Source: Bacteriovoracaceae bacterium (GTDB lineage: Bacteria; Bdellovibrionota; Bacteriovoracia; Bacteriovoracales; Bacteriovoracaceae). Taken from it: 33,943 nucleotides of DNA. The DNA lies in NCBI GenBank assembly GCA_041586955.1, contig JBFGZE010000024.1:1-33943 (forward strand), read 5' to 3'. Positions 625 to 18,217 of this stretch are shown here, one piece after another; the stretch's first letter is position 1, and each line of letters starts with the position of its first letter. The notes beneath the pieces are model-generated. The model saw only the letters and a program-made list of their open reading frames with translations, was not told the DNA's origin and ran no database searches. A program made the translations under genes and the position numbers.

Positions 625-909
625 TTATCTGTAGATTGACTCTAAAATAACAACGACTGCGTAAATACCCGCACTAACAGGTATCGCTGCAATGAACTTT
701 AGCCAGCGTGTTTCCTCTTTTAGGTGCATATAGAAATAAGCAACCGTACAGGCCTTTCCAATAGCGAGAAAGGTCAGCGCACTGCCTTTCGCAATCTTAC
801 TCAGGCTTTCGGCCTCTGGAATGTATATTTCGATAATCGTTAAAATAGTTAAAAGTATAAAAACGGCAAAGTATTCTTTCTTGTGGCTTTTGTGAGCATG
901 GGCTTCCAT
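625..909 (-). CDS. ctaF: Cytochrome c oxidase subunit IV (prokaryotic COX4/CtaF family)
   Basis: His-rich N-terminus, 3 TM helices, LTIIE and K..VAYFYMHLKEE motifs; operon context. Confidence 0.85.
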   Translation of the reverse strand: MEAHAHKSHKKEYFAVFILLTILTIIEIYIPEAESLSKIAKGSALTFLAIGKACTVAYFYMHLKEETRWLKFIAAIPVSAGIYAVVVILESIYR

Positions 910-919
910 ACAAACTCCC

Positions 920-1612
920 CTAATTAATTTTATGTCTATTTACTAAAATTCCTAAATCAATCATTAACTTATTAATCGAATTTTTATCCGTGGAATAATA
1001 ACCCCGAATCATTCCCGTTTTATCAACAAGAACTAGTTTTTCGGAGTGTACAATATCGATTAAATCGACTTCCTCATTATCAACGAGTTTTTGAATGGGT
1101 TCTTTCCCCCCCATTGCTAACTTAAAGCCATTAACCACCAAATCATATATTTTTTGATGATCCCCGGTAACAAATTTCCAAACAAAAGGATTGGCCTTCA
1201 AGTCCCTCGCAAATTTATTAAGCACCTTGGGAGTGTCTGTTTCGGGGTCAACTGTAAAAGTCACCAGAGCAACTTTCGTTCCCAATCCACGAACTCTTTT
1301 TTGCACCTTTTGAACTTTTTCCATTAGGCCCGGGCAAGATGTTGGACAAGATGTAAACATGAAGCTAGCAAGATAAAACTTGCCCTTCAGCTCATCTGAA
1401 CCAAAAGGCTTATTAAATTCATCAACGAAACGAAAATGGGGAACCTGAAAGTAATTGGGGAGTTCTGGTGGCAATTCTCTATTCATCGAACGATAAATAG
1501 GAAATCCAAATGTGAATACGAAAAAAATAAGCCAAAACGATTTTTTGCGAACAACATTTTCAATAAAATTATAATTGCGAACAAATGTCGTCGCGCTAGT
1601 TGGTTGACTCAT
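920..1612 (-). CDS. sco: SCO1/SenC family copper chaperone
   Basis: N-terminal TM, FTSCPTSCP (CxxxC), TVDPETD, distal His in IVHSEKLVLVDKTG. Confidence 0.93.
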   Translation of the reverse strand: MSQPTSATTFVRNYNFIENVVRKKSFWLIFFVFTFGFPIYRSMNRELPPELPNYFQVPHFRFVDEFNKPFGSDELKGKFYLASFMFTSCPTSCPGLMEKVQKVQKRVRGLGTKVALVTFTVDPETDTPKVLNKFARDLKANPFVWKFVTGDHQKIYDLVVNGFKLAMGGKEPIQKLVDNEEVDLIDIVHSEKLVLVDKTGMIRGYYSTDKNSINKLMIDLGILVNRHKIN

Positions 1613-1613
1613 C

Positions 1614-2495
1614 TTACTTCAAACTCTCCATTAACTTTTTCCTTTTAGGCGTATCTTTCATTTCCATTAAGTGTTTAACGTAATAGGCGACGGCCCACAC
1701 ATCATCATCTTCAATTGTGTCTTTCCATGCTGGCATGGCAGTTCCACCAGCTCCTGCAGCAATTCTGATTGCCAAATCATTAATATTTTGAGCTGAACGA
1801 ACTTTATGCCAAGTAAAGTCCGGTGGTAAGGTGACATAGCCATGATCACTGTCTTGAAGCTTAATTTTAAAATAATCTTCATCTACGTCGTCAGCTGTTT
1901 CCTTTGTCAGTCTCATTGTCATTTCTTTAAGCTCAGTGTTTGAAACATAACCTCTGTGACAACTCTGGCATTGAGCGACAACATGGTAAACTTCTCGACC
2001 TCGTTTAATTGCCGCCTCTTTATGAGCAAGACCAAAAGGATCTTTTCCTAATGTCATCTTCTCACCAAGCTTTTTGTCTTTACCGACCCATGTTTTAGGA
2101 GCGAAAGTTTTAATATATTGCCAAACAGCTTCCATCTGGCCGGGCTTTAAATCCCAAGGCAACATTGCTGTTCCATCGAGTCCTTCTTTTAAAGTTTTAT
2201 AGACGGCCTCATCGTGAGTTAAATCACCAGAGGTCACATCGCCAAATTTTATCAAGCCTAGTGTAAAATTCCGCGGTGGAACGGGTAAACCTTTTGCTGC
2301 GACACCATTACCATCACCTTTGACGCCATGGCAGGGCATGCAATATTCCATATAAATCTGATGCCCTTTATTGAGGGTTTCTGCACTCACGTACTGACCC
2401 CCGGCCATAATGACACCCTCGCGAAAATTACCTTCTTGGCAGCCAAAAAGTAGTACCTGGCATAAGACAAAAATAAGAACTGACATTCTATTCAT
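1614..2495 (-). CDS. Diheme cytochrome c, probable lipoprotein
   Basis: CMPCH and CQSCH with distal Met motifs AMLPW and AMPAW; signal peptide ending LLFG-C. Start placed at ATG 2495 behind GAGGA. Confidence 0.88.
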   Translation of the reverse strand: MNRMSVLIFVLCQVLLFGCQEGNFREGVIMAGGQYVSAETLNKGHQIYMEYCMPCHGVKGDGNGVAAKGLPVPPRNFTLGLIKFGDVTSGDLTHDEAVYKTLKEGLDGTAMLPWDLKPGQMEAVWQYIKTFAPKTWVGKDKKLGEKMTLGKDPFGLAHKEAAIKRGREVYHVVAQCQSCHRGYVSNTELKEMTMRLTKETADDVDEDYFKIKLQDSDHGYVTLPPDFTWHKVRSAQNINDLAIRIAAGAGGTAMPAWKDTIEDDDVWAVAYYVKHLMEMKDTPKRKKLMESLK

Positions 2496-2507
2496 ATTAA
2501 TCCTCAA

Positions 2508-3096: not shown

Positions 3097-4824
3097 CTAT
3101 GCTAGTTCTTCAGTTTGAAATTGAAAGTCTTTTCCTGCTGGTAAATTAGGATTCCCATACTCATGAGGTCCACATTTTACGACAGGGATTTCTTTAAAGT
3201 TATAATGAGGTGCAGGAGATGGGATTTCCCATTCTAATGTTCCAACTTCCCATGGGTTATCACTGGCCTTTTCTTTCTTGAAGAAAACGGCGTGAACAAA
3301 GTTAACGACAAAGATAATTTGAGCTAAGCCCATAATAATTGCAGACCAAGTAATAAACATATTCATTGGAATTAGTTTTTCTAAGAAGTCATAAACAAAA
3401 GGGTTATAAAGTCTTCTATGCATTCCAGCATAACCAACAAGCATCATGCCAAAAAAGACACCATTAAGACCCATCATGGTAATCCAAAAGTGAACCTTGG
3501 CCCAAAACTCATTCATCAGTGTTCCAAACATCTTTGGCATCCAAAAATAAATGGCCGCAAATCCCCCTAAGAGAACTGATGCCGCCATAGTGTAATGAAA
3601 ATGTCCTACAACAAAATAAGTATCATGGAGATAAAGATCCGTTGTTACAGTCCCAAGATAAAGACCAGTTAAGCCTCCAAGACCGAAAACAAAAACCACG
3701 CCCATGGAAAAAAGCATAGGGGAATGAAGTCTAATAGAACCTTTCCATAAAGTTCCCAACCAATTCGCAAAAAAGATGGCCGATGGAATGGAAATAGTCA
3801 TCGTCAAGGTCATAAAGGTCTGCGTTAAAAGCGGACTCATTTGCGTTGTAAACATATGATGACCGTAAACCAAAGTCGAAAGAATTGTAATTGACGTCAT
3901 TGATAAGGCAGTGGCCTTAGCACCAAAGGCAGGCTTTCTCGCAAAAAAGCTCAATAAATCAGAAACAATACCCCAGGCCGGTAGGATCAAAATATAAACT
4001 TCTGGGTGACCGAAAATCCAAAAAACGTGCTGAAATAGAACCGGATCTCCCGAGCCACTGGTGGCGGCTGCTCCAGCGAGGAAAAATGTTGTTCCAAACA
4101 CACGATCAAAAACAAGAAGTAAAACACCTGCACCCAATACTGGAAGAAAGATCGCGTTCAAGACCGCTGTTAAACCAAGACCCCAAACAGTTAAGGGCAT
4201 ATCAAAATATCCCATACCAGGAGCTCGAAGAGTTATAATAGTGGTAATATAATTAACCGCGCCCATCGTCGAACTGATACCGAGAACAAAAATTGCCATT
4301 GACCAAAGTGTCTGACCAACACCCGGGCTACCGATTAAGGTACTAAGGGTTGGATAAGAGGTCCATCCTCCAGCAGCTGCACCAAGTGGGGTAAAAAGCG
4401 AGGCCATAAGAAAAAGGCCCGAGACCACGGCAAGGTGAAAAGACAGCATATTCAACAAAGGAAATGCCATATCTCTCGCACCAATCATCAATGGAATACA
4501 GAAATTACCAAAGGCCCCTATTAAAATAGGAGTAATGGCATAAAAGATCATAATTGTTCCATGCATTGTGAAAAGCATGGCGTATGTATCCGGTGGGACG
4601 GCCCCTCCAGTCTCAGGAAATAGGAAAGATCCAAACATGGGAAACGGCTGTCCAGGGTAAGCTAATGTCCAACGAATCATTAGCGCCATTAGGCCACCAA
4701 TTAAAAGAAATAAAATTCCGTACCACAAAAACTGCTTACCAATCACCTTATGATCATAGGAGAAAATATACTTTGATAAAAAGGTGGTGGGCTTTGGATG
4801 GATATGCTGCTCAAAAAAAGCCAT
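3097..4824 (-). CDS. ctaD: Heme-copper oxidase subunit I, A1 type (K-channel Lys absent)
   Basis: DHKVIG, TMHG, GWTSYP, FGHPEVY, GHHMF, HDTYFVVGHFHY, GMHRR: all six His ligands and the cross-link Tyr are present. Confidence 0.97.
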   Translation of the reverse strand: MAFFEQHIHPKPTTFLSKYIFSYDHKVIGKQFLWYGILFLLIGGLMALMIRWTLAYPGQPFPMFGSFLFPETGGAVPPDTYAMLFTMHGTIMIFYAITPILIGAFGNFCIPLMIGARDMAFPLLNMLSFHLAVVSGLFLMASLFTPLGAAAGGWTSYPTLSTLIGSPGVGQTLWSMAIFVLGISSTMGAVNYITTIITLRAPGMGYFDMPLTVWGLGLTAVLNAIFLPVLGAGVLLLVFDRVFGTTFFLAGAAATSGSGDPVLFQHVFWIFGHPEVYILILPAWGIVSDLLSFFARKPAFGAKATALSMTSITILSTLVYGHHMFTTQMSPLLTQTFMTLTMTISIPSAIFFANWLGTLWKGSIRLHSPMLFSMGVVFVFGLGGLTGLYLGTVTTDLYLHDTYFVVGHFHYTMAASVLLGGFAAIYFWMPKMFGTLMNEFWAKVHFWITMMGLNGVFFGMMLVGYAGMHRRLYNPFVYDFLEKLIPMNMFITWSAIIMGLAQIIFVVNFVHAVFFKKEKASDNPWEVGTLEWEIPSPAPHYNFKEIPVVKCGPHEYGNPNLPAGKDFQFQTEELA

Positions 4825-4855
4825 TTGACTCTCCTAAATTAAATTGAAACCTAAA

Positions 4856-5620
4856 TTATTGCCACTTCCAACCCCAAAAGAGGTCAGCTTTTTCAACGTC
4901 GTTTTCCGTTTTGGCGATCTGCTGAGCAGTATTAAGCCATTGCTGGTACTCTTCTTGGGTATAGACAGTTAGTTTTGCTTGCATTCTGTAATGATAGGTC
5001 CCGCACATTTCAGCGCAGGCAATATCATAGACGCCAGGGGTTTTAAGCTTGTACCATAAGCGAGTAATACGCCCAGGAATAGCATCGACTTTCCGACGAG
5101 CATTTGGAAAATAAAGTGAGTGAATTACATCTTTTGAAATAATTTGAAAAACTACTTTTTTACCAACTGGAACTCTAAGGTCGTTAACAGTTGTTATGTC
5201 ATCATCTGTATTAAAAACACCATCTTGACCTGCATAACGAAAGTTCCACATCCATTGCTGGCCTAAAACCTCAACTCGGACAATGTCCTCATCCTCAGAA
5301 GGCCAGTTAATGAAAACATTTGTGAAGTCATCGTTGGACATTCTGGTGATATTCATATCGATACCAACAAAAACAGCAATACCTATAATTGTAGCGACAA
5401 GAATATGAGTCTTTTTATTGCCATAGGTATAATACGGCCTAGGATGTCTTTTATGATGATAAAGAATGGCAAAACCAAAAAGGCCCAAACATACCAAAAT
5501 AAAGAAAAATACATTCAAAGTAGTGGTGTAATTAAACAACCAATCAATCAAATGGCCATTCTCAGAAATATCCTGTGGCGGGGTTAAACTATTTAAAAAA
5601 TCGGTAATCATTTGCATCAT
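4856..5620 (-). CDS. ctaC: Cytochrome c oxidase subunit II (CuA, no fused cytochrome c)
   Basis: Two TM helices, QQWMW, DVIHS, CAEMCGTYHYRM CuA motif; no CxxCH. Confidence 0.96.
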   Translation of the reverse strand: MMQMITDFLNSLTPPQDISENGHLIDWLFNYTTTLNVFFFILVCLGLFGFAILYHHKRHPRPYYTYGNKKTHILVATIIGIAVFVGIDMNITRMSNDDFTNVFINWPSEDEDIVRVEVLGQQWMWNFRYAGQDGVFNTDDDITTVNDLRVPVGKKVVFQIISKDVIHSLYFPNARRKVDAIPGRITRLWYKLKTPGVYDIACAEMCGTYHYRMQAKLTVYTQEEYQQWLNTAQQIAKTENDVEKADLFWGWKWQ

Positions 5621-5737: not shown

Positions 5738-7591
5738 CTATTTTAAAAATGCCATGGCACCCAATAATAAGGGTAAATAAAAAATAGAGCCGAGAAAATA
5801 AATACGCGCCCAACTTCTTTGCGCCGCTCCCTTCACCGGATAAATAAAACCCACTGCAGCAATTAGAGTAAAAATTCCGCCCATAACAAAGGCGGCTTTA
5901 GCGTAGGCGGGGCCAGCAAAACCATAGAAAAAAGGTAAAATTGAAATACCGAGCATTAAAAAAGTAAACCAAAAGATCAGACTACGTGTCATATTCAAAC
6001 CTTTGAGGTTTGGAAAAACCTTAATACTGGCCTTGCCGTAATCTTCAGCATGATAAATTGAAATTGCTAGAAAATGAGGTAATTGCCATATAAAAAGCAC
6101 TAAAAATAGAATCCATGCCATGGGATCTATATGGCCAGTCACTGCTGTCCATCCCATTACCGGAGGAATCGCACCCGGAATTGCCCCTACAATTACGGCA
6201 AGTTCGGTTTTTTGCTTCATTGGTGTGTAGAAAAAGAGATAGAGGATAGTCGCTAAACAGGCCAATAGGCATGTTAATGGATTAATAAAGATAGCGAGAA
6301 TTGGTAAACTCACACATAAAAGAAAGCAACCAAAAAAGAGCGCCATACCAGGATCAATACGGCCAGCGGGAAGAGCGCGATTTTTTGTTCTATCCATTAA
6401 AAGGTCAACATCCCTTTCTAGATAACAATTCAATACAGCGGCTCCATAGACAACCAATAGGCAGGAAATGATCGCAAACGCACCCTTAAAAAAACCTATT
6501 TCACCTGGCGCGATAAACATTCCAATAAAAATTGTTGCGACCACCAAGCCGGATAACTTCGGTTTGGTAAGTTCTACGAGGTCTTCTAAGGTTGAATAAA
6601 TTTTATTCGGGAAAACTTCGCTTTCTAAACGGCCAATGAATAAAGATAAAGACCATAAGGTTCCCAGTATTAATGCTGCACCACCGAGATGAAGGGTTGT
6701 CGGCATCGGGCTAAGATTATAGGCCACAGTAAAGAAACCTAAACAAACCTGTGCAAAAATAACAATAATCCCAAACGTTCCATGAAATATAATATTTTTA
6801 AAAACAGAACTGCCAATTAGGTTTTTTCGAGTAATCGAAAAAATAATCGCTCGAAGAAGAGATAGTAAAACAATAATACCTAAACCGACGCCGATATAAC
6901 GGTGAAGCATATGGAGCTGGGCAATTGGCATTGCCGGCCAAAAGCTTTTAATCCAGGTATTTGTATCAAGACAGAGAAAGGCATTATCCCAGCCAAGGCC
7001 GCAGGAGACACCAGCGCCACTATGGCGCATAAAGGCCCCGAGGATAATCTGGATATAAATTAAGAAAGAAGAAATTTGGAGAGCGTTCTTAGTCCCTGTT
7101 GACCAACCCTTTTGCAAAGCAGGGATATCTTCTAATTCCAGAGGGTTCTCGCTCTTTTCCACTAGGAAGCGGGCCTCATGGAAAATAAGAATTAAGGTAC
7201 AGAAAAATATCATCGACAGGGCCAGGTGAGACGTCGAAACAATTGTTGGCAAACGATAGATGACAGTTATCCCGCCCAGTAAACCTTGTAGAATAACAAA
7301 GAAAAGCGCCAATAATGTAAGTTTTGAAAAATGAGAATGCTTTTCGCTTTTCTTTCTAAGCCGAAAGGCCATTGCTGCCATTATGAGCGTCAGAAGGCCG
7401 ACAAAGGAGGCCAGTAAGCGGTGACCGTGCTCAATCAAAATGCCGCCTTCCATTTTAGGAAAAAACTGACCGTAACATAAAGGCCAGTCAGGGCAAGCTA
7501 GAGATGAGCCCGTATTATGCACGACCCCTCCCAGCAATAAGAGGAGAAAGGTAGTGAGTAATGTTAACAAAGATAGTCGTCTATACAGCAT
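5738..7591 (-). CDS. ctaA-ctaB: Heme A synthase / heme O synthase (protoheme IX farnesyltransferase) fusion
   Basis: N-half has CPDWPLC, EHGHR, HLALS, HMLHR, HLGGA (CtaA/COX15). C-half has ELTKP, NCYLERDVDLLMDRTKNRALPAG, WQLPHF (CtaB/COX10). One continuous frame; start placed at ATG 7591. Confidence 0.95.
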   Translation of the reverse strand: MLYRRLSLLTLLTTFLLLLLGGVVHNTGSSLACPDWPLCYGQFFPKMEGGILIEHGHRLLASFVGLLTLIMAAMAFRLRKKSEKHSHFSKLTLLALFFVILQGLLGGITVIYRLPTIVSTSHLALSMIFFCTLILIFHEARFLVEKSENPLELEDIPALQKGWSTGTKNALQISSFLIYIQIILGAFMRHSGAGVSCGLGWDNAFLCLDTNTWIKSFWPAMPIAQLHMLHRYIGVGLGIIVLLSLLRAIIFSITRKNLIGSSVFKNIIFHGTFGIIVIFAQVCLGFFTVAYNLSPMPTTLHLGGAALILGTLWSLSLFIGRLESEVFPNKIYSTLEDLVELTKPKLSGLVVATIFIGMFIAPGEIGFFKGAFAIISCLLVVYGAAVLNCYLERDVDLLMDRTKNRALPAGRIDPGMALFFGCFLLCVSLPILAIFINPLTCLLACLATILYLFFYTPMKQKTELAVIVGAIPGAIPPVMGWTAVTGHIDPMAWILFLVLFIWQLPHFLAISIYHAEDYGKASIKVFPNLKGLNMTRSLIFWFTFLMLGISILPFFYGFAGPAYAKAAFVMGGIFTLIAAVGFIYPVKGAAQRSWARIYFLGSIFYLPLLLGAMAFLK

Positions 7592-7621
7592 AAAATTCTT
7601 ATATTTGAAAATTTTTGATTT

Positions 7622-7650
7622 CTTATACACAGTTGGCCAGGATTCGACAA
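7622..7650 (-). promoter_or_regulatory. Possible sigma70 promoter for ctaA-ctaB
   Basis: TTGTCG (7650-7645), 17-nt spacer, TATAAG (7627-7622), ~30 nt upstream of ATG 7591. Confidence 0.35.
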
Positions 7651-7740
7651 TCAATCTAGTGATAATTTCTTATGGACAAGTGGCCATAAAAATTCGTTAA
7701 TGAGGTGGCCTTAAATCACTATTTTGACAATGAGAGCATT

Positions 7741-8829
7741 ATGAAAAATAAAATAAAACCTATTTACTATGGCGATTATTTAAAATTAAATCAACTGCTT
7801 GACTCACAACACCCAGTGTCACCATCATACGACAACCCGTGTCATGACGAGATGCTATTTATCGTTATTCACCAAGTTTATGAGCTATGGTTTAAACAAA
7901 TAATTCATGAAATTAAATTTATTCAAAGTATTTTATCCCAAAAGCCAGTGCAGGACTCTCAATTATCAGAAATTGACCAAAAATTGGAAAGGATCAAGAA
8001 AATTCAATTTGTTCTTAATAACCAAATTGAAATTTTGGAAACAATGTCTCCTATGGACTTTCTCGAATTTAGAGATTATTTAGTCCCAGCTTCCGGCTTC
8101 CAAAGCGTGCAATTCCGTGAAGTAGAAATTAGATTAGGACTCTCCACTCATAATAGACATCAAATCGATCGCGAATATTTTCTTGGCCGCCTTAATGCCA
8201 AGGATAGGGACCATATCGAAGAAGTAGAAAAAACCCCCTCTCTCTTTTCTTTGCTATCTGACTGGCTAGAAAGAATGCCCTTTACGTATAAAGGAGAATT
8301 TGATTTTTGGAAAGAATATCAATTGAGTGTTGAGAAAATGCTAGATGAAGACAGGAGTACTATCGTCAATAACCTAGCGAATCTTTCCGAAAGGGAAAAA
8401 GAAATTCAATTTGAAAATTTAAAAATTACTCGTCAAACCTTTGATAGCTTATTTGATGTGAAGCTACATCAAGAAGAAGTTAATAAGGGTGAGCGCAAAC
8501 TCGGTCAAAAGGCCTTATTAAACGCTTTATTTATTTGTTTATACAGAGATTATCCTCTCATGGCCCTTCCTTATAAAATTATCACACACCTTATTGATAT
8601 TGATGAGCAGTTTTCCTCTTGGCGCTACCGTCATGCCATGTTGGCCCATCGAATGCTCGGTACTAAAATTGGAACGGGTGGCTCATCAGGGCATCAATAT
8701 CTCAAGCAAACAGCTGAAAAAAATCGCATTTTTGTCGATTTCTTTAATATTTCTACATTTATTATTCCAAGATCAAAACTTCCTCCATTACCAGATAAGC
8801 TAAAATCACAATTAAGCTTTTTCTATTAG
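7741..8829 (+). CDS. kynA: Tryptophan 2,3-dioxygenase (long form)
   Basis: YGDYLKLNQLL, HDEMLFIVIHQVYELWFKQ, PASGFQSVQFR, WRYRH...RMLG.KIGTGGSSG. Start placed at ATG 7741. Confidence 0.96.
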   Translation: MKNKIKPIYYGDYLKLNQLLDSQHPVSPSYDNPCHDEMLFIVIHQVYELWFKQIIHEIKFIQSILSQKPVQDSQLSEIDQKLERIKKIQFVLNNQIEILETMSPMDFLEFRDYLVPASGFQSVQFREVEIRLGLSTHNRHQIDREYFLGRLNAKDRDHIEEVEKTPSLFSLLSDWLERMPFTYKGEFDFWKEYQLSVEKMLDEDRSTIVNNLANLSEREKEIQFENLKITRQTFDSLFDVKLHQEEVNKGERKLGQKALLNALFICLYRDYPLMALPYKIITHLIDIDEQFSSWRYRHAMLAHRMLGTKIGTGGSSGHQYLKQTAEKNRIFVDFFNISTFIIPRSKLPPLPDKLKSQLSFFY

Positions 8830-8839
8830 GGGGTGTCTT

Positions 8840-9994
8840 ATGTACAAAAAATATTATTCTGGGTTTTTAAAATATAACTCTCATATTCAGCATATGGCCT
8901 GCCATTCCCATCATTTTTGGCCGGACGTCACAAGAGAGGGCATGCTCGAATACTGGGAAGATTCAGCAAAGCTGGTCGATCACAAATGGAATAAAATTTT
9001 TAGTGAAAAGATCCCCACCGTACAAAAGTTTATTGCTGAAGTTTTAGATGTTGATCATTTTGAAAATATTACTTTTGCACCCAACACGCATGAATTGGCC
9101 TATCGCTTAATTTCTTCTCTCGAAGGCCAAACGCCAACCATCGTGACAACAGATTCTGAATTTTATAGCTTTAATAGGCAAATAGACCGTCTCCAAGAAA
9201 GTGGCGATATAAAAGTTATCAAAGTGCCCACTATTCCTTTTGAATCATTTCCAGAGCGTTTTCTTTTGGCCATTGAAAAAAATAATCCCGAAATGATTTT
9301 TTTAAGCCATGTTTTCTTTAATTCTGGCGTGAAGATCCCAGATGCACTCATTAGTATGATTTGTCATAAAAAGCAGAAAGAAAGTATTTTTGTTTTAGAT
9401 GGCTACCATAGTTTTATGGCCACCCCCTACTCACTGCGAGAAGTTCAAGAGCAAATATTTTTTATCGCTGGTGGCTACAAATATGCTCAAGCAGGAGAAG
9501 GCTGCTGCTTTCTCTACTCTCCTCCGCAAACTAAAATTCGCCCAAAGAACACCGGTTGGTTCGCAACACTTGGCCAATTAGATGAAATAAAACCTGGATC
9601 CGTCAGTTTCCCTGAGGATGGACTGCGTTTTGCGGGCTCAACCATGGATTTCTCTCCACTCTATCGTATGGAAAAAGTTTTTAATCTTTTTAAAGATAAA
9701 AATATCACGGTGGAGGTTATTCATCGCCATATTCAATTCTGCCAAAAACAATTTCTTGATGAGTTGGAAAAGCAAAATCATCCACAAATTAATAAAAAGA
9801 CCCTTATTCACAGGGATCTCAATGACCATGGCCATTTTTATACTTTTAAGGTTCAAGATAATAAGACGGCGAAAGAAATCACTAAGTTTTTAAATGAACA
9901 TAATATTATAATTGATTCACGAGAAAACCTGGTACGCTTCGGATTTGGACTCTATCATGATGGAAATTACGATTTATCATGCCTTAATAATTAA
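8840..9994 (+). CDS. kynU: Class V PLP aminotransferase-fold enzyme, probable kynureninase (divergent)
   Basis: LSHVFFNSG, LDGYH, GGYKY (PLP Lys), TGWFA, RFAGST, RFGFGLYH; 10 nt downstream of kynA with an SD-like GGGGTG. Confidence 0.7.
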   Translation: MYKKYYSGFLKYNSHIQHMACHSHHFWPDVTREGMLEYWEDSAKLVDHKWNKIFSEKIPTVQKFIAEVLDVDHFENITFAPNTHELAYRLISSLEGQTPTIVTTDSEFYSFNRQIDRLQESGDIKVIKVPTIPFESFPERFLLAIEKNNPEMIFLSHVFFNSGVKIPDALISMICHKKQKESIFVLDGYHSFMATPYSLREVQEQIFFIAGGYKYAQAGEGCCFLYSPPQTKIRPKNTGWFATLGQLDEIKPGSVSFPEDGLRFAGSTMDFSPLYRMEKVFNLFKDKNITVEVIHRHIQFCQKQFLDELEKQNHPQINKKTLIHRDLNDHGHFYTFKVQDNKTAKEITKFLNEHNIIIDSRENLVRFGFGLYHDGNYDLSCLNN

Positions 9995-10511
9995 GAAATT
10001 TTAAAAATAAAAATACCAGAACCCCTGTAACTGAAACGTATAACCATACAGGGAAAGTGATTCGAGCAATTTTTTTATGGGCCGAAAATTTTCCGAGGGC
10101 CGCAAAGCTGAAAGTTGCGAGAATCAAAGGTACCTGAACAATACTCAAAATAATATGAGTGATTAAAATAAAGAAATAGGCATATTTTTTTATCCCAAAT
10201 CCAATAAAGCGCGTGTCACCGTGGAAATAATGATAGAGCAAATAGCCAACGAGAAAAATTGCTGATGTAAGGCCAGCAGATATCATTAACCTGATATGTT
10301 TTTCTTTATGACCTTTGCGAATGGCACGAAAACCAAGTATTAATAAGATACTGGTTAAAGTGTTTAAAATGGCGTTAACTGCCGGAAGAAATGTTAAATT
10401 AACCTCTGTTTGTGCCTGAGTTCGGAAATAAATAAACCAAACGAGAAAAACAAGTATCACACCACCTAGGCCTAAGGATAAGGCCCAAATGCTTTTATTA
10501 TTATTTTTCAT
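9984..10511 (-). CDS. DUF420 family membrane protein (CtaM-like oxidase assembly factor)
   Basis: LPAVNAILN, GFRAIR...H...M, FLVGYLLYH, YFFILITHIILS, HKKIARITFPVWLYVSVTGVLV. Confidence 0.88.
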   Translation of the reverse strand: MKNNNKSIWALSLGLGGVILVFLVWFIYFRTQAQTEVNLTFLPAVNAILNTLTSILLILGFRAIRKGHKEKHIRLMISAGLTSAIFLVGYLLYHYFHGDTRFIGFGIKKYAYFFILITHIILSIVQVPLILATFSFAALGKFSAHKKIARITFPVWLYVSVTGVLVFLFLKFLNY

Positions 10512-10743
10512 CAAGGATTAACTCAGAATTGCGGTTTTTAATGATAGTTCTATAGAGAATATAAAAAGGTATATAAGTCAAAGCAATAAAACCCATCAAA
10601 ATATAGACAATATAACCATCGCGAGGATTATCAGACGAACCTGCGCAAAGGGGGCATGCCTGCGCAAATTCGTTCGCAAATAAAAAAAAAGTGAATATTA
10701 ATTTACCTAAAGTAGGTAAATGAAAGTGAAAACGAGAATCCAT
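10501..10743 (-). CDS. Small exported membrane-anchored CxxC protein
   Basis: Signal-like segment ending AQA followed by CPLC, then one TM helix and a basic tail. It fills the gap between the subunit III paralogue and DUF420 and overlaps both. Confidence 0.65.
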   Translation of the reverse strand: MDSRFHFHLPTLGKLIFTFFLFANEFAQACPLCAGSSDNPRDGYIVYILMGFIALTYIPFYILYRTIIKNRNSELILDEK

Positions 10744-11333
10744 ACTAAGTCTACAAAGTGCCAGAAAAGTCCGGCGAGCTCTAAAAGGTTATAATCGCCA
10801 TTATCGAAGCGACCGTCAAAGGCCATTTTGAACATATACATTAAATAAATAGTACCCGCTAGAACATGAAGACCGTGAAAACCCGTAATTGCAAAGAATG
10901 TAGAGGAAAACAGGCCATTACCAGTAGGACCAGCATAGGTATTAAAAGTCATTCCCAGGTCATTTATCAAATGCATGTATTCGTAAGCTTGGATCGCTAG
11001 AAAGCTAACGCCACCAGCAATGGTCAGGCCAAGCCATAGAAGCATATTTTTGCGATCTCTTCCCTTACACGCATCAATCGCGAGCACCATGGATAAAGAA
11101 GAGCAAATTAAAAGAAAAGTCATAAAACCAGAAAGGCCAACACCACCGAGGGCCTCAACAGGATTTGGCCATTCCATGGTCGCTCTAAGAATTCCATAGG
11201 CAATCAATAGTCCTGAAAAGGACATTGCATCGGTTCCCAGGAAAAGCCACATACCGATTTTTCCAGGAGAGGCGACCCCAAACTGAGGGTCATTTGGGTA
11301 TTTTAAAGGTCCATCATGGGCTTTAGTACTCAT
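10707..11333 (-). CDS. ctaE: Cytochrome c oxidase subunit III-like protein (short 5-TM paralogue 2)
   Basis: KIGMWLFLGTDAMSF, TFLLICSSLSM, QAYEY, TGFHGLHV, GLFWHFVDLVWILVFTFIYL. Confidence 0.92.
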   Translation of the reverse strand: MSTKAHDGPLKYPNDPQFGVASPGKIGMWLFLGTDAMSFSGLLIAYGILRATMEWPNPVEALGGVGLSGFMTFLLICSSLSMVLAIDACKGRDRKNMLLWLGLTIAGGVSFLAIQAYEYMHLINDLGMTFNTYAGPTGNGLFSSTFFAITGFHGLHVLAGTIYLMYMFKMAFDGRFDNGDYNLLELAGLFWHFVDLVWILVFTFIYLL

Positions 11334-14170
11334 TATTTAGTCTCCCAATATTTCGTTTGAGAATCTGGAAGAAAGTCATGTCCAATCTCAATTAAATATT
11401 TCGTCAATGCATTGATCTGCTTTTTCGGATCACCATCAAGGATAGAAGGCTCAGTTGCCTCACCATCCTCCCAGAAGTTAGGCATAACTGTTTCACTAAG
11501 AATCGCTTGTGGGTTAGCTAACCATTTTTTTATCCAAGAGGGACGCAATCTTCTTTTCGCAAAATAAAGATTTGGCGCAGTGGCCTCTTCATTATTAAAG
11601 CCAGCGGTATGACAAGAAGCACAGGCTAAACTGTCAAATAGCTTTTTCGCAGCAACTCTTTCACCCGGCTCCCATTGAACACGAACCTTATTATCAACAA
11701 AGGTTTGCTGCTTTTCTTTGGCCTGAAACATTGAAACAATGGCGTTTCTCTCTTCATTACTAAGGTTAAATGTTGGCATCCTCACTTTTAACCATGGGCG
11801 AATAGGATAGACATCCTTAAGGAAGTGATGAAACCAATCAGCTTGAACCCGATGCCCCTGCCCGACAAGGAGGGGAGGTCCCTCGTTAATATCTTCATCA
11901 TACATTTTTAGAATATCACCACGAACTCCATCGACTTGGTGACAACCGATACAATTGAACTTATTAACAACTTTCATTCCATCAGCTGCAATTTGTTCAT
12001 GGGCATCAAGCCTCTTAATACCAGAGAGTGGAATTTTATCCGCAACCTGACCGATTAAGGCAATAGTGATTGAATTTGCCTCTTCCTCAGTCATATCAAA
12101 GTCAGGCATTCTTAAAAGATCTTTAAAAGGCTTATCAATGCCGTTATCCCACCGTCTGGGATTAAGTAAATGTGCCTTAATCCAGCCATCTCGAGAATGT
12201 TCAACATCATGCTCATGGCCAAAACCAAACTGAGTTAGTGGCTTAGAGCCAACTTTGGTTAGCTCTGGACCAATTGGTGCGCGCCCTTCAAAACCATCGA
12301 TATTGTGGCATGAATAGCAACCATATTTACCAACAGAGCGATGGCCAAGCTCGAGCGTTCTCTCTCTATCACTCATTGAATCGAGTTTTTTCTTGGCGAC
12401 TGCGAGAGTGTCGAAAGCTGAGAAGTAAGTTATCAAAATTTCGTCGCGAACTTTTGTGTCTAATTTTTCAAACTCTAAAGACTCAAACTGACGATTCTTT
12501 AAGGACATGAGATAAGCTGTAATATCATTCGCTTCACGATCGGTGAGCCTAAAGCTCGGCATGATCGTATCTTCTTGATAATGAGTTGGTTTTTTAAGCC
12601 AAGAAACCAACCAATCAGGGTTCACTTTAGAGCCAGTTCCTGTCAAATGCGGACCAGCAAAAGCGTCAATTTTATCCGAAATATCTTCGAAGCCCTCTAC
12701 CCCGTGGCACCCCATACAACCAATTTCCTTAACCAAATTTTTACCTCTCTCGGCATTACCACCGGAAAAAGTCTTAAATGGTTTATAATCAGCTGACTTA
12801 TCGAAAAGGTATTCTGCAATTGCGTTAACCTCAGCAATATTCTTTTTCATGAACTTTGGATCTTTATTATTATCCAGCCCAAAAAAGCTCGGCATTTTTG
12901 CATGCTTATTAAATTTTTTGGGATCCCAAACCCAATTTTTAAAGAATTCTTTACTTACCTTAGAGGCAATCTTCTTAAGGCCTGGGCCAGGTTTTCTCTT
13001 GTGCTCCCACCCTTCGATTTTGTGGCAGGCATAGCAACCAAATTTTTCAATATTTCTCTGGCCTTCATTAACAACCGTTCCTTGAGGAATAAACTCCACT
13101 CCCTGGTGACATTTAATACAGGCGGCTTCAGTTTGTCCTTTTTTGTACATTGGCTGAGCGATTTTATGAGGAGGGTGGTAATTATATTTTTCGACCCATT
13201 CTTTTTTCTGCTCTTCATTTTGAGGAGTGTGAGCAGGAGAGCTGAAATCAGTTACTCTATGCCCTTCACCACCATGACAAGAAGTACAACCAAATCTCTT
13301 CATTGGATGGTGAGACTTTAAACCAACCATTAAGTCCAGGTTGGGGTGAGTTTTAAAAGGATTTTTCTCTTTTTCGTAGCCCTTTTGATCGATAAAGGTA
13401 TGACAAGTAATACATCGATCGACTTTAGGTACATGTTGAAAATACCGGTCATCAGTTACATCTGTGAGTACTAATTGTTGAATCTTCAAAGTTGGATCTA
13501 AGAAATCAATAAGAGGAGCATTCCGAATAACAAAAATACCATTCATATCCGTTTGAGCTTTGGCCTGACGGAGAAGATCAATTGAACCAGTTAATGCCTT
13601 AAGTTCTTTTTCTGCAACAATTTGTTCTTTCTTTAGTTCCTCTAATCTCTTCTGAGCTTTTTTAAAGCGACCATCAAGATCTTTCATTCGATCTCTCGAC
13701 TCAGCAAAAAGACGTTTTTTATGAGACATAGTCTTAAAGAGTGACTTGGCATTTGGGGCGTGATTAGTGTGGGCCACACCATAGTCAAAAGTTAAAGCAG
13801 CAACTTGAGAATTTAACGTACCATTAATAATGGTTTCGGCCTTAATCTCTTTTTTAAGCTCCATTATTCGCTTTTCAACTTTACGAATATCTTGGACACG
13901 GCTTTTGGCGAGGGCCTTACCTTTTTCAATTTCTGCTAGGACTTCCTCTTTTTTCTTTTTATCAAGTTTTTCCTCGGCCAACTTAAGCTTTTCTGAAATT
14001 TTTTCTCTTTTTATATTCATGGCCTCAATCTGAAAGGCCTTCCACGGACGAATATAATCATCAAGGAACACCCAGATAACACTCACAAGAAAAATAAAAG
14101 AAAGAAAGGCAAAAATCTTATTTAATTTTTTAATATTAAAGGCCATGCCTGGTTCAATATCTTTTTTCAT
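11333..14170 (-). CDS. Membrane-anchored octaheme cytochrome c of the Rieske/cytochrome b complex
   Basis: N-terminal TM, long coiled-coil-like segment, and eight CxxCH motifs: CITCH, CTSCH, CIKCH, CYACH, CMGCH, CYSCH, CIGCH, CASCH. Confidence 0.92.
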   Translation of the reverse strand: MKKDIEPGMAFNIKKLNKIFAFLSFIFLVSVIWVFLDDYIRPWKAFQIEAMNIKREKISEKLKLAEEKLDKKKKEEVLAEIEKGKALAKSRVQDIRKVEKRIMELKKEIKAETIINGTLNSQVAALTFDYGVAHTNHAPNAKSLFKTMSHKKRLFAESRDRMKDLDGRFKKAQKRLEELKKEQIVAEKELKALTGSIDLLRQAKAQTDMNGIFVIRNAPLIDFLDPTLKIQQLVLTDVTDDRYFQHVPKVDRCITCHTFIDQKGYEKEKNPFKTHPNLDLMVGLKSHHPMKRFGCTSCHGGEGHRVTDFSSPAHTPQNEEQKKEWVEKYNYHPPHKIAQPMYKKGQTEAACIKCHQGVEFIPQGTVVNEGQRNIEKFGCYACHKIEGWEHKRKPGPGLKKIASKVSKEFFKNWVWDPKKFNKHAKMPSFFGLDNNKDPKFMKKNIAEVNAIAEYLFDKSADYKPFKTFSGGNAERGKNLVKEIGCMGCHGVEGFEDISDKIDAFAGPHLTGTGSKVNPDWLVSWLKKPTHYQEDTIMPSFRLTDREANDITAYLMSLKNRQFESLEFEKLDTKVRDEILITYFSAFDTLAVAKKKLDSMSDRERTLELGHRSVGKYGCYSCHNIDGFEGRAPIGPELTKVGSKPLTQFGFGHEHDVEHSRDGWIKAHLLNPRRWDNGIDKPFKDLLRMPDFDMTEEEANSITIALIGQVADKIPLSGIKRLDAHEQIAADGMKVVNKFNCIGCHQVDGVRGDILKMYDEDINEGPPLLVGQGHRVQADWFHHFLKDVYPIRPWLKVRMPTFNLSNEERNAIVSMFQAKEKQQTFVDNKVRVQWEPGERVAAKKLFDSLACASCHTAGFNNEEATAPNLYFAKRRLRPSWIKKWLANPQAILSETVMPNFWEDGEATEPSILDGDPKKQINALTKYLIEIGHDFLPDSQTKYWETK

Positions 14171-14188
14171 ACCTACAAATCCCTAAAA

Positions 14189-15265
14189 CTAAAGGTTCAA
14201 TTCCCATTCTGGTAACGCAACAATGTACTTCAGACTAAATAACCAACGCAGTACCATTTTGATTGGTAAGCTACACATCAGCAAAACCAGGACAGTTAAA
14301 ATATAAAACCTCATCTGCCCCATATCCTTGATTAATTGCTTACCCTTTTTACTCGCTGCCATAATTGGGGGCAGACCGAACATATAAAGGAAGGATAGTA
14401 TAATTCCTAAACTTTCCCGTATCACGAGGTTTTTTGGCATAGACGTATTCAGCCATTTAATCCACAAAAATTCGGATAGATTAACGTTATATTCGGCGAC
14501 AACTTTATGAAAATCCCAAAACTCAAATGGTCCATAGAAAGTCCAGTTTGGCCCTCTTAAAAAGGTTCCCACGATAATAAGGTAAAGCCATAAGGCCAAC
14601 CAACCAAAAAGAAATAAAGAGACGGCCATCTTTCTTTCAACAAAGGTAAAGTAGCCATTACCTTTAGGGTTGGTATCAATATAGGGAATAGCAATTAGTC
14701 CCACAACAATAACACCTGGTAAAACCACCCCGGCCATCCAAGGGTCAAAATAAACAAGCATTTCTTGCAGCCCAAGAAAGTACCACGGGGCCTTCGCCGG
14801 GTTTGGTGCCCAAGTTGGGTTGGCGGGCTCCTCGAGTGGCGCCTTAAAAAGGATCGCCCATACAATCAGGAAAACAGTTGTCGCAATAATGCAAAATAAT
14901 TCGATATAGACAAGATTAGGCCAACACCAAACCTTTTCTCTATTTTCAGGTAAGGCCTCGATTGGGCATTGCCCGGCCTCAATACGCGTATCATTAACCG
15001 CACATTTATAAAGGGCAAACCATGTCAAAAACGACACAAGGACAATCAAGATTACGATTGGAATATTATCCGGCCAGGTTATAATGGCCCAAAAATTCGG
15101 GTCAGCAGCGAACCATCCGACAACAGGTATAGACAATAGGGCCGAAATGATTCCAAATTTTTTCGTCCCTATAACTTTATAATTCTTAATCATTAAATAA
15201 AATAAAAAACAAAAAATGGGGAACGATCTAATCGGATCAGCTAACCAGTTAATAATCTCTTTCAT
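14189..15265 (-). CDS. petD: Cytochrome b6 subunit IV-like protein (C-terminal half of split cytochrome b) with extra TM helices
   Basis: WPNL, APLEEPANPTWAPNPAKAPWYFLGLQEML, IPYID; follows the b6-like gene. Confidence 0.88.
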   Translation of the reverse strand: MKEIINWLADPIRSFPIFCFLFYLMIKNYKVIGTKKFGIISALLSIPVVGWFAADPNFWAIITWPDNIPIVILIVLVSFLTWFALYKCAVNDTRIEAGQCPIEALPENREKVWCWPNLVYIELFCIIATTVFLIVWAILFKAPLEEPANPTWAPNPAKAPWYFLGLQEMLVYFDPWMAGVVLPGVIVVGLIAIPYIDTNPKGNGYFTFVERKMAVSLFLFGWLALWLYLIIVGTFLRGPNWTFYGPFEFWDFHKVVAEYNVNLSEFLWIKWLNTSMPKNLVIRESLGIILSFLYMFGLPPIMAASKKGKQLIKDMGQMRFYILTVLVLLMCSLPIKMVLRWLFSLKYIVALPEWELNL

Positions 15266-15282
15266 GAATCTAAATCCTTAAA

Positions 15283-16065
15283 TTAAAGTGGAGCTGAAAT
15301 ACCGCCGTCTTTACGCACTCTCCAAAAGTGAACTGCAATCAAAACCCCAACAACAAGTGGGATAAATACGCAATGAAGAATATAAAAACGAAGGAGCGCC
15401 GGCTCACCTACAAAACGACCTGCCAATAATTGAAAGCGGACATCGTTCTTGTCTGAAACCATAACGAAGTCACCGATCTGGGCAAGAGCTGCCCCGGGGC
15501 CACCATGACCCATGAACGGAGTTGCTTTTGCCATATTAGATCCAACTGTAATGGCCCAAATTGCCAATTGATCCCACGGTAACAAATAACCTGTAAAGGA
15601 TAAGAGCAATGTTAAAACGAGAAGAATAACACCAATACCCCAGTTGAATTCACGTGGCGGCTTATAAGATCCCGTCATGAAAACGCGGAACATATGAAGC
15701 CAGACGGTAATAACCATGGCGTGAGCGCCCCAACGATGGATTTCACGCATAATTCCCAAAGGCACGTGCTCTTTGAGAGCGATAATATCATTGAACGCAT
15801 ATTCCGCTGTTGGACGATAATAGAACATTAACAATAGGCCCGTTACAGTAAGGGCCAGAAAGATAAAAAATGTTAATCCCCCCATGCACCATGTATAACC
15901 TAACTGAACGCCAGACTTTTTTAACTTAATGGGGTGTAAATGAAGAAACACGTTTCCTGCAACAACTGCTGCTCTATTTCTTGAATTATCAGGTGGACCA
16001 TGTCTAAAAATAGACTTCCATACCTGAGTCTCTCTCACTTTATCAGCAAATCCCTTGTTCGCCAT
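15283..16065 (-). CDS. petB: Cytochrome b6-like protein (N-terminal half of split cytochrome b)
   Basis: WCMGG, IHRW...[24 protein letters not shown], helix D histidines separated by 14 residues, C-terminus GISAPL. Confidence 0.95.
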
Positions 16066-16084
16066 AATAACTATCCTTTACCTA

Positions 16085-16591
16085 TTAAACTGAAAGATAG
16101 GCATCGGGGTGATCCCATTGCCCTTTTTCGTAACGATATATTTTTGTTTTATCCACTTTGATAACGCCTTCTGGAGTTAACGAAATTTTATAACGCTCCA
16201 GAGGACGAGGAGCGGGCCCCTCAAAGTTAATACCATTCGTGTAATAACCTGAACCATGACAGGGGCATTTAAATTTTAATTCTGCTGGTTGCCAGTTTGG
16301 AATACAGCCAAGATGAGTACAAATATTAGAAAGCGCCACGAGCTTTCCTTCTTGCTTAACCATCCACACGCCGTAACCATTTTTCCAACGTTCATCGACA
16401 CCCTCTTCATAGTCTTCAGGCTTTCCTGCAAGAAACTCCATTTCAGGCTCAAAGTTAACGTTAGGGTAACTAAAGCGAAAAGCTAAACTAAGTAGCCCCC
16501 CACATGCTGCTGAAAATAAAATCCACGCGACACTGAGAAAGCTGAAAAACTCACGTCTATTCAGGCTTTGCCTTACTGCACTATCACTCAT
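16085..16591 (-). CDS. petC: Rieske [2Fe-2S] subunit
   Basis: Tat motif NRREFF, TM anchor, CTHLGC and CPCHGSGY boxes, GPAPRPL. Start placed at ATG 16591. Confidence 0.96.
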   Translation of the reverse strand: MSDSAVRQSLNRREFFSFLSVAWILFSAACGGLLSLAFRFSYPNVNFEPEMEFLAGKPEDYEEGVDERWKNGYGVWMVKQEGKLVALSNICTHLGCIPNWQPAELKFKCPCHGSGYYTNGINFEGPAPRPLERYKISLTPEGVIKVDKTKIYRYEKGQWDHPDAYLSV

Positions 16592-16618
16592 CAAAACTTC
16601 CTTTTCTCTATATAAAGG

Positions 16619-16698: not shown

Positions 16699-17565
16699 CT
16701 AATTTTTCAATATATTTAGAACTTCTCTTTCCTTAGCAAGAATCGTCATATCCTGCTCTATCTCAACGCGTCTCTCCAAAAGGCCCCGAGCGTCATCCCA
16801 TTTTACTTGGCCGATCTTAGTAAGTATCGACAATTTCAAATTTTTAATTTGTTGGGGCTCCAAATTACTTTGAGTGATTGACTCTGCATCCAATTGGAAA
16901 ATTGCTTCGATTACTTCAAGAGCAGCAGGGTCTTTAAAATTAACTAAGGCCTGTGCGGCAGCGTATTTGATTGATTGTGCCGGATGAGTGAGGTGTGTCC
17001 TAATGGCCTGATGAGCGCTTTCTACCCGATGGGTTCCAAGGGCCAAAATAGACGCTTGAAGCAGGGGCTGGTCTTCGCTTTTCAATAAATTTTCTATAAT
17101 CTGCCAATCCTGAACGCTACCATAGGGCAGATTGGCGTAGGCCACTACAGCGTGAAATCTAATATTGGGGTCAGTATGCTGAACTGCTTTCTTTAGCACA
17201 GGCAAGCAGCTTGGTTGCTTAAGGGCACCGAGGGCCACGACAATAAAATCCTTTGACCTTGGGTCTTCGGTGCTATCATATAATTCCGATAAATTAGTAA
17301 TTAGCCAGGGAAGCTCGTCTTCCGGAATTTGAGAAGTAGAGATCAATTTGGATAATTCATATGCTGCAATCCAGCGATTACCAAATGTTTTTGATTTCAT
17401 CTCTCTAACTAAATCTTTATAAGAGCGGTCAGAGTTTAGCATTTTGGTAACGCCAAATACGATCAGTGCCCCTACTAATACAATCGCGATTGGGACCATT
17501 AGACTACCCAGAATAGGGTTTTCCAATAGTTTCTTTTTAGGTGTGTCATTTTTTATTTCAGACAT
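16699..17565 (-). CDS. Membrane-anchored HEAT/PBS-lyase-like repeat protein
   Basis: One N-terminal TM, then repeats such as NRWIAAYEL, VVALGAL, NIRFHAVVAY, SILALGT, SIKYAAAQAL. Start placed at ATG 17565. Confidence 0.8.
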   Translation of the reverse strand: MSEIKNDTPKKKLLENPILGSLMVPIAIVLVGALIVFGVTKMLNSDRSYKDLVREMKSKTFGNRWIAAYELSKLISTSQIPEDELPWLITNLSELYDSTEDPRSKDFIVVALGALKQPSCLPVLKKAVQHTDPNIRFHAVVAYANLPYGSVQDWQIIENLLKSEDQPLLQASILALGTHRVESAHQAIRTHLTHPAQSIKYAAAQALVNFKDPAALEVIEAIFQLDAESITQSNLEPQQIKNLKLSILTKIGQVKWDDARGLLERRVEIEQDMTILAKEREVLNILKN

Positions 17566-17671
17566 AGGAGCGTGATACCTTTTCAAGCCATTAAACGTGT
17601 CATATGAAAGTACATAGATGGATGAAATAACAAATTCACCCGATGATGACAATCACTGAAGAGGCCAAACT

Positions 17672-18217
17672 GTGCATAATTTACTAAGATTTCTTATTTT
17701 ATTAATGTTTTTAGCTATATGTCTGACAACGGCAGTCGCATTAAAGCTGATCGAATTTCCGCTAGGCCATATTCAACTGGCCATCATAAGTTTTATTTAT
17801 ACCATTTTCGCCCAGGCATTTGTAATGTTTTATTTTATTGGAGTGTCGCGGTTAACTCAAAACGTTTACGACATTTTGAATCAAAAAGGTGATATCAAAG
17901 AGCTATTTGATAATCCCCCTGCCGACCTAGCGCCCTATCTCAAAAAAACAACAAAATTTGTTCAAGATACAACACGCTGCAAACGCCAAACAATCCCCTG
18001 GACTATGCTTATGCTAGTACTTGGAACAATTGCCTTTCTCCTGGGAGGGGCGCATGACACAGGCCTGGTCCGGAAAACAACCCATTCTGGTGTGGTTTAT
18101 GGTTTTTTAGCGGCGATGATTATTGGCTTTATCCGCCAATGGTATTATCTAGGCGTAAGCAATAAAACATTGAGAAGACTCAAGACCCTATTTGAAATAC
18201 CTCAGGGACAAATGTAA
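17672..18217 (+). CDS. Uncharacterised 4-TM membrane protein
   Basis: Four hydrophobic segments, with His residues near TM ends (GHIQL, GAHD, THSG); divergent from the HEAT gene. Start uncertain. Confidence 0.75.
   Translation: MHNLLRFLILLMFLAICLTTAVALKLIEFPLGHIQLAIISFIYTIFAQAFVMFYFIGVSRLTQNVYDILNQKGDIKELFDNPPADLAPYLKKTTKFVQDTTRCKRQTIPWTMLMLVLGTIAFLLGGAHDTGLVRKTTHSGVVYGFLAAMIIGFIRQWYYLGVSNKTLRRLKTLFEIPQGQM

Follow-up and report, generated by a model that had tools for sequence, protein, structure and literature searches.

Mechanistic studies of cytochrome c oxidase regard the lysine of the K-pathway as indispensable. The B and C families nevertheless operate through a K-analogue channel that is free of lysine, and in the ba3 enzyme of Thermus thermophilus (1EHK, 3S8F) and in cbb3 oxidases this path is made up of Ser, Thr and Tyr. 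Here we describe an A1-type haem-copper oxidase encoded in a stretch of 33,943 nucleotides from a Bacteriovoracaceae bacterium (contig JBFGZE010000024.1 of assembly GCA_041586955.1; hereafter the window), in which the K-pathway lysine of subunit I (CoxI) is replaced by phenylalanine. A whole clade of these enzymes does without the lysine (K-less), and some of its members apparently have no other terminal oxidase.

The variant itself is already in print at the level of sequence. Degli Esposti et al. (2021, Front Microbiol, PMC8239418) tabulated the K-channel residues of bacterial and archaeal COX1 (Table_3, for Fig. S7), and their row 'Halobacteriovorax multispecies, A1, WP_114706215' lists K354=F, T351=S, S357=N, Y280=Y, S291=S and E292=D, with G/T/S/S at the KC positions, a non-acidic residue at COX2 E78 and the class 'KC-channel'. 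The same table gives F at K354 in Bacteriovorax stolpii and no Lys in many other family-A lineages, among them the CoxA of the Acidithiobacillus rus operon, Elusimicrobia, Methylacidiphilum and CyoCAB types. In the sections of the paper cited here, its authors weigh at least six losses of Lys against an ancestral KC-like channel, and report that the COX2 Glu has often disappeared along with the Lys. An earlier, sequence-only reading of the window had regarded an existing description of the subfamily as telling against its proposal; such a description exists at the sequence level, since this supplementary table lists K354=F.

Replacement of the K-pathway lysine in subunit I

In a phmmer search against all PDB chains, CoxI matched solved A-family subunit I with an E value of 1e-111, and its helix VIII ('tisipsaiffanwlgtlw') lay over that of mycobacterial CtaD ('liavptgikffnwigtmw') with zero gaps. 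Because this alignment is gapless, Phe351 occupies the position of the K-pathway Lys (K362 of Rhodobacter sphaeroides, K354 of Paracoccus denitrificans), and its TTT codon differs from AAA and AAG at all three bases. Alignment to the solved chains also showed the haem ligands H88, H408 and H410 and the CuB ligands H273, H322 and H323 to be present, while the helix-VI signature GHPEVY supplied the A1 Glu (E275) and the putative cross-link Tyr (Y277). The D-channel set was canonical (N107, D118, N125 and N191), H400/D401 and the Arg pair R470/R471 were present, and the Mg ligands were complete. Retained positions of the K-pathway were Tyr277, S288 (equivalent to R. sphaeroides S299), S348 (T359) and N354 (S365).

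The sequence-only reading had assigned Phe351 to the Lys position without gaps, had argued that the TTT codon was unlikely to be a sequencing slip, and had listed the D-channel, the His ligands, the cross-link Tyr, the RR pair and CuA as intact. All of these assignments held up, the first against the solved A-family chains, the second among the homologues described below, which speak against chance as well, and the last by residue alignment. By homology and its helix-VI signature CoxI would therefore be classed as an A1 enzyme, and not as a canonical enzyme with both D- and K-channels, as Phe351 stands where the A1 subtype has its K-channel Lys. It does not belong to the B family, as it has a D-channel and as ba3 chains were not its nearest relatives, matching part of the protein only (phmmer E value of 4e-11).

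The K-pathway entrance in subunit II

The CuA ligands of CoxII were complete (H167, C202, E204, C206, H210 and M213), and its entrance segment reads 'YGNKKTHILVATII'. In the phmmer alignment H72 of 'GNKKTHILV' fell, at a moderate posterior, opposite the Glu of both P. denitrificans ('HNTPIEVIWT') and Thermus ('GNDRLEVVWT'); one MAFFT alignment agreed, and another opened a gap there and put Gly76 on the Glu. No alignment that we tried placed Glu or Asp at the entrance position, in accordance with the earlier claim that the entry Glu (E101-II) is absent, and a protonatable His is present. At the 30 loci of the family this position was occupied by His (24) or Gln (6). The published Halobacteriovorax row has Ile at COX2 E78, in contrast to the His72 or gap of the window CoxII.

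Conservation and distribution of the K-less site

Among 120 close homologues of CoxI (84-100% identity) the K site was Phe in 119 and Leu in one; T305, S316, Y320, S345, S348 and N354 were found in all 120, and T313 in 119. The names borne by close homologues point to Halobacteriovorax and Bacteriovoracaceae, within Bdellovibrionota. Identity across 29 family loci was 80-93% for CoxI, 57-78% for CoxII and 35-51% for CoxIII, and this last range indicates that CoxIII evolves much faster than CoxI. The nonsynonymous substitution rate (dN) of cox1 was 0.07-0.10, with saturated synonymous rates (dS), and dN/dS was 0.016-0.034 in the two computable pairs. A decaying copy or a sequencing error was ruled out by this conservation. 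The missing 'essential' residue is what would speak for a non-functional copy; the dN/dS of about 0.03 or less, the retention of Phe and the intact ligands speak against one, as do the findings, given below, that the source genome has no second A-family oxidase and that the enzyme is the sole oxidase detected in seven relatives, and the chance of decay is negligible.

A survey of the phylum (201 genomes, from which 50 loci were then examined) extended the K-less state beyond the family. The K site was Phe at 27 and Leu at three of the 30 loci of the family itself, Phe at all six loci of a second family (58-64% identity), Ile at seven and Val at one of the eight loci of a third group (43-47% identity), and Ile at one further locus, all of the A1 type; the five loci from five other families had Lys and were of the A2 type (SHPAVY). 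The third group (L040-L047, from Bdellovibrionota families) is a separate K-less A1 type with AHPEVYV and VWAHH motifs. At its loci the S299 (R. sphaeroides) position is mostly Ala, and a Glu stands near the start of the second transmembrane helix of CoxII in eight of eight.

In the best 150 representatives after clustering at 50%, the K site was Lys in 89, another residue in 54 and gapped in seven; the non-Lys residues were Leu (16), Ile (13), Gln (9), Val (5), Phe (4) and Ala (2), with one each of Thr, His, Glu, Tyr and Met. A midpoint-rooted FastTree tree was built from 134 sequences, 43 of the 177 having been dropped because less than 88% of the query was covered. The query clade adjoined six K-less representatives on this tree, all of which replace the usual V-W-x-H-H with V-Y-[G/A]-H-H and two of which bear Kofleriaceae and Myxococcaceae names. 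Three other CoxI-like sequences (P0135, P0234 and P0255) have 'GQH' for the CuB His-His pair and no Lys at the K site, and are probably non-oxidase paralogues.

A scan of species genomes confirmed 510 relatives, and the best 80 of these, mostly from Myxococcota (L061-L140) and including cultured Corallococcus, Myxococcus, Pyxidicoccus and Hyalangium, were examined. Lys was missing in all 80 (Leu in 59, Met in 15, Val in four, and Phe and Ile in one each). All 80 had Ser at the position six residues N-terminal to the K site (-6), and 77 had VY[GA]HH. The earlier reading had asked whether homologues share the loss as a clade; they do, and the K-less variant is a trait of a large clade common to Bdellovibrionota and Myxococcota. 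The Myxococcota sister group is remodelled differently from the Halobacteriovorax clade: 43 of the 80 loci have Glu at K-2, the second residue ahead of the K site (in 'PAEVLF' or 'PAEVMF'), which may be a relocated protonatable group, and Ala replaces the K-pathway Thr/Ser at -3 in 64.

The upstream CoxII was located for 78 of these 80 loci with a BLAST-based search, and 77 sequences were used for the His72 column of a MAFFT alignment, which read Ser in 33, Asp in 12, Gln in 11, His in eight, Ala in six, Glu in one and other residues in six. In the same alignment the column read Glu in four canonical and three second-family CoxII.

These distributions also bear on whether the lysine was ever present in this lineage. 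The K-less state could be ancestral and preserve an older cbb3-like ('KC') path, a view for which Degli Esposti et al. draw on a maximum-likelihood tree; in the part cited, the supplement of PMC8239418 favours a KC or hybrid channel as the ancestral state. Clades X1, X2 and X3, all K-less, stood together next to the midpoint root of our tree, and the residues at the KC positions match. The rooting is arbitrary (midpoint of a FastTree tree that has no outgroup), the K-bearing P0131 branches beside X3, and other K-less clades lie among K-bearing groups, and we regard an ancestral origin as rather doubtful. This alternative concerns history only, and is compatible with the mechanism proposed below, in which protons follow a Lys-free path.

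Evidence for function as an O2 reductase

The source genome (88% complete) encodes three haem-copper enzymes, namely the A1 oxidase, which is its sole A-family oxidase, a cbb3 oxidase whose CcoN and FixO are fused in one protein of 713 residues beside FixP, and a qNOR that has an Rrf2-family regulator and a ScdA/hemerythrin protein as neighbours; cytochrome bd (PF01654) was not found in it. We surveyed 40 other genomes of the family, each at least 95% complete, with the profiles PF00115 and PF01654. Seven of the 40 (G204, G206, G210, G034, G215, G216 and G113) matched PF00115 once and PF01654 not at all, and in all seven the single match was the K-less A1 enzyme, with Phe (six) or Leu (one) at the K site. 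Genome G042 of the family instead bears a canonical, Lys-bearing A2 enzyme. A search for the alternative oxidase (PF01786) gave no match in five of the single-oxidase genomes, and control genomes were equally silent. A look-up of sequencing runs listed four marine metagenome runs, all of one study, and no RNA among them.

As the only haem-copper oxidase detected in seven of 40 sampled relatives, in which cytochrome bd was not found either, the K-less A1 enzyme is very probably a working O2 reductase. These organisms are presumed to be obligate aerobes according to the cited part of a preprint (bioRxiv 10.64898/2026.07.03.736386), and in presumed obligate aerobes with one oxidase, we infer, the K-less enzyme would be the respiratory oxidase.

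The sequence-only reading had raised the possibility of different chemistry with peroxide or NO. An enzyme of this kind might reduce NO or peroxide, or might be a non-pumping or low-turnover O2 scavenger in place of an energy-conserving terminal oxidase; K-site mutants of model oxidases keep peroxide-driven partial reactions, and the cbb3 oxidase of the source genome could carry respiration. Nitric oxide reductases (NORs) of the haem-copper oxidase superfamily (cNOR, qNOR and newer types) lack the cross-link Tyr and have an altered active site, in which FeB takes Glu ligands or one His has been exchanged, according to the cited portion of Murali et al. (2024, PMC11214002), which does not cover a K-less A1 case. 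CoxI keeps the Tyr and the three CuB His, no NOR-type Glu ligands were seen in it, and its match to the A family stands at 1e-111 against 4e-11 for ba3, the most distant haem-copper relatives among the matches listed. The dedicated qNOR with its Rrf2 regulator and ScdA lies elsewhere in the source genome, the cox1 gene has genes for haem A and copper assembly beside it and those of a Rieske/cytochrome b complex close by, and the enzyme is the sole terminal oxidase detected in those seven relatives. Changed chemistry is, in our judgement, very unlikely.

A candidate Lys-free proton path

Polar residues of 19 clade members were contrasted with those of 74 Lys-bearing sequences. Residues specific to the clade, with the commonest residue of the Lys-bearing sequences in parentheses, were T305 (Met), T313 (Gly/Ala), S316 (Gly), Y320 (Trp) and S345 (Ala/Gly); at the position of S308 Ala was commonest in the 74. 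Further clade-specific polar residues were T212, N223, T395 and Q502. Position 303, at the start of helix VII, was basic in 18 of the 19 clade members and in 19 of the 74. With this exception, no new Lys, Arg, Glu or Asp that might represent a relocated charge was found within the membrane helices of the query clade. Given their i+3/4 spacing, residues 305, 308, 313, 316 and 320 would line a single face of helix VII in the direction of the CuB His pair, and this hydroxyl ladder ends two residues ahead of the CuB ligands H322/H323.

CoxI agreed with the published KC-channel row, which comes from the same genus-level group, at Y277, S288, F351, S348, N354, D289, G301, T305, S308 and S316; of these, F351, T305, S308 and S316 place it in the KC-channel class of that table. 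Judging from the spacing of 4, 3 and 8 residues, T305, S308 and S316 may be the positions that were matched to S244, H247 and Y255 of the Vibrio cholerae cbb3 subunit CcoN, the match on which the KC-channel class is founded.

Position -6, which is Ser345 in CoxI, followed the state of the K site. Among the 134 sequences Ser was found there in 44 of the 49 with a hydrophobic K site and in one of the 74 with Lys, the other 73 of which have Ala or Gly. Ser(-6) was uniform in five of the eight maximal hydrophobic-K clades and present in seven of eight members of a sixth; two of the three remaining hydrophobic-K clades have lost a CuB His, and the Gln clade retains Ala at -6. As kin are not independent, we treat the association of Ser(-6) with loss of Lys as a lead and not as a statistic.

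The reading we favour, and hold to be somewhat probable, is that the locus encodes a working aa3-type A1 oxidase of a Halobacteriovorax-like predator that takes up protons by a Lys-free polar path. Across the clade the K site holds Phe, Leu, Met, Ile or Val instead of Lys, His, Gln, Ser or Asp stand in for the subunit-II entry Glu, and the D-channel of the enzyme is canonical; O2 would still be reduced to water. The protons of the reductive half-cycle, which normally pass via the Lys, would take a water- and hydroxyl-lined route free of Lys, as in B- and C-family oxidases. Its retained parts would be Tyr277, Ser288, Ser348 and Asn354, its clade-specific parts Ser345 and the helix-VII ladder of T305, S308, T313, S316 and Y320, and its cytoplasmic mouth K303 of subunit I with His72 of subunit II. 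The earlier conclusion that the K channel had been lost appears too strong, as other K-pathway positions are kept, His is at the CoxII entrance in two of three alignments, and extra conserved hydroxyls are present on helices VII and VIII. The Asp in GIVSDL, which had been thought unusual, is an ordinary variant, Glu/Asp being common there in K-bearing oxidases.

The main rival to a Lys-free polar path is delivery by the D-channel only, in which the K-pathway is truly absent, chemical and pumped protons all pass through the D-channel, and the hydroxyls of the clade are packing that fills the space of the Lys. It would be consistent with the canonical N107, D118, N125, N191 and E275, with a K site that is bulky and hydrophobic (F, L, M, I or V), with the loss of the entry Glu and with the variability of S308. 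However, the near-invariant S345, T305, T313, S316, S348 and N354, together with the recurrence of Ser(-6), suggest selection for polarity over filling, and K-site mutants of the A-family enzymes that have been studied are not known to be rescued by the D-channel. We consider D-channel-only delivery unlikely, if less so than changed chemistry.

Several points weigh against the proposed Lys-free path. Replacement of the Lys in R. sphaeroides or P. denitrificans nearly abolishes turnover, and because such mutants are nearly inactive, a hydrophobic K site is a real functional problem for this proposal. The one-face geometry of the ladder follows from helix periodicity only, and the ladder is not fully conserved, with S308 in 63 of the 120 close homologues and Ala in 56. 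On the tree, an approximate FastTree reconstruction rooted at its midpoint, the link with Ser(-6) comes down to about five clades that are independent, and kin share residues by descent. The enzyme counts as a sole oxidase by two Pfam models applied to draft genomes, of which only G216 is a single contig, and the source genome also encodes a cbb3 oxidase. In the literature searched we found no activity, spectra or structure for any clade member, nor any biochemistry on the K-less oxidases of Halobacteriovorax or Myxococcus, and PMC6431628 contains no text on the K-channel.

More tentatively still, a Lys-free path may have evolved repeatedly within the A family, marked by Ser(-6), by hydroxyls lining one face of helix VII and here by Tyr in place of Trp before the CuB His-His pair, and may fully replace the K-pathway in the sole oxidases of obligate aerobes.

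Operon and neighbourhood

The features of the window are collected in Table 1; the oxidase operon, on the minus strand, is complete. Pfam annotation agreed with the earlier claim that assembly genes stand beside an intact A1-type oxidase. The cytochrome c protein of 297 residues is probably the electron donor or entry subunit of this oxidase, and the fusion of CtaA and CtaB has been noted for Bdellovibrio and Halobacteriovorax, in the portion of PMC8239418 cited here. A subunit III-like gene inside the bc-type operon (9984-16594), which is upstream of the oxidase operon, hints at a possible bc-oxidase supercomplex.

Table 1. Positions of the oxidase genes, their key residues and neighbouring genes in the window
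Feature	Positions	Strand	Evidence
CoxI, 575 residues, A1-type subunit I with GHPEVY	3097..4824	minus	open reading frame (ORF); PF00115, 451.8 bits; phmmer E 1e-111
Phe351, codon TTT, at the K-pathway Lys position	3772..3774	minus	gapless alignment and codon
Ser345, six residues N-terminal to F351 (-6)	3790..3792	minus	alignment
Helix VII segment K303-Y320 with candidate hydroxyl ladder T305, S308, T313, S316, Y320	3865..3918	minus	clade contrast
CoxII, 254 residues, two transmembrane helices and CuA cupredoxin domain, without cytochrome c domain	4856..5620	minus	PF00116; E 3e-24 to P. denitrificans subunit II (phmmer)
His72, codon CAT, at or beside the entry Glu of the K-pathway (E101-II in R. 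sphaeroides, E78-II in P. denitrificans)	5405..5407	minus	alignments
CoxIII, short, 191 residues	2508..3083	minus	PF00510
Cytochrome c protein, 297 residues, two matched cytochrome c stretches	1614..2507	minus	PF13442 (two stretches), PF00034
SCO1/SenC copper chaperone	920..1612	minus	PF02630
Prokaryotic oxidase subunit IV	625..909	minus	PF03626
CtaA-CtaB fusion (haem A synthase and haem O synthase)	5738..7654	minus	PF02628 and PF01040
Rieske protein	16085-16594	minus	Rieske/cytochrome b complex
Split cytochrome b	15283-16065 and 14189-15265	minus	
Multihaem cytochrome c, 945 residues	11333-14170	minus	
Second COX3-like gene	10707-11333	minus	
ORF of 80 residues with CPLCAG motif	10501-10743	minus	
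DUF420 gene	9984-10514	minus	

Between the bc-type and oxidase operons, the opposite (plus) strand at 7705-9994 encodes a tryptophan 2,3-dioxygenase (PF03301) and a class-V aminotransferase-fold protein. A HEAT-repeat protein (16699-17652) adjoins two ORFs that have no Pfam match (17672-18217, plus strand, 181 residues, and 18221-19516, minus strand, 431 residues), and all three are near the Rieske gene.

Comparison with known oxidases

Should a Lys-free path have evolved repeatedly and fully replaced the K-pathway, the 'essential' Lys would be just one of several solutions, and the enzymes of Halobacteriovorax and Myxococcus would be natural, culturable test systems. The cultured representatives of the clade (Halobacteriovorax marinus, Corallococcus, Myxococcus and Pyxidicoccus) are a natural experiment on how reductive-phase protons reach the binuclear centre. 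Relative to the published table, our analysis adds the breadth of the clade, evidence on function and candidates for mutation (Ser(-6) and the helix VII ladder). The association of Ser(-6) with Lys loss in several separate clades and the conserved helix VII hydroxyl ladder are new with respect to that table, which in the part cited does not tabulate Ser(-6), Tyr320 or T313; the cited parts of the paper contain no biochemistry and treat neither the sole-oxidase distribution nor the extent of the variant in Myxococcota (PMC8239418).

With the canonical aa3 and caa3 oxidases (P. denitrificans 1AR1/1QLE, R. sphaeroides 1M56, and CtaD 6ADQ/8HCR) the window enzyme shares the fold, the metal ligands, GHPEVY, the D-channel, the Mg site, the Arg pair and CuA. 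It differs from them in having Phe for Lys on helix VIII, His for Glu in subunit II, Tyr for Trp before His-His, Ser for Ala at -6, and the hydroxyls of helix VII. It stands apart from the B and C families in keeping the D-channel and the A1 Glu, both of which are missing there, and the ba3 row of the published table has T at K354 and S at T351 (PMC8239418). Other K-less family-A oxidases likewise have a residue other than Lys at the K site, are otherwise intact and have often lost the subunit-II Glu. However, they form separate clades on the tree, and most of the listed rows are A2 enzymes or have different helix VII residues.

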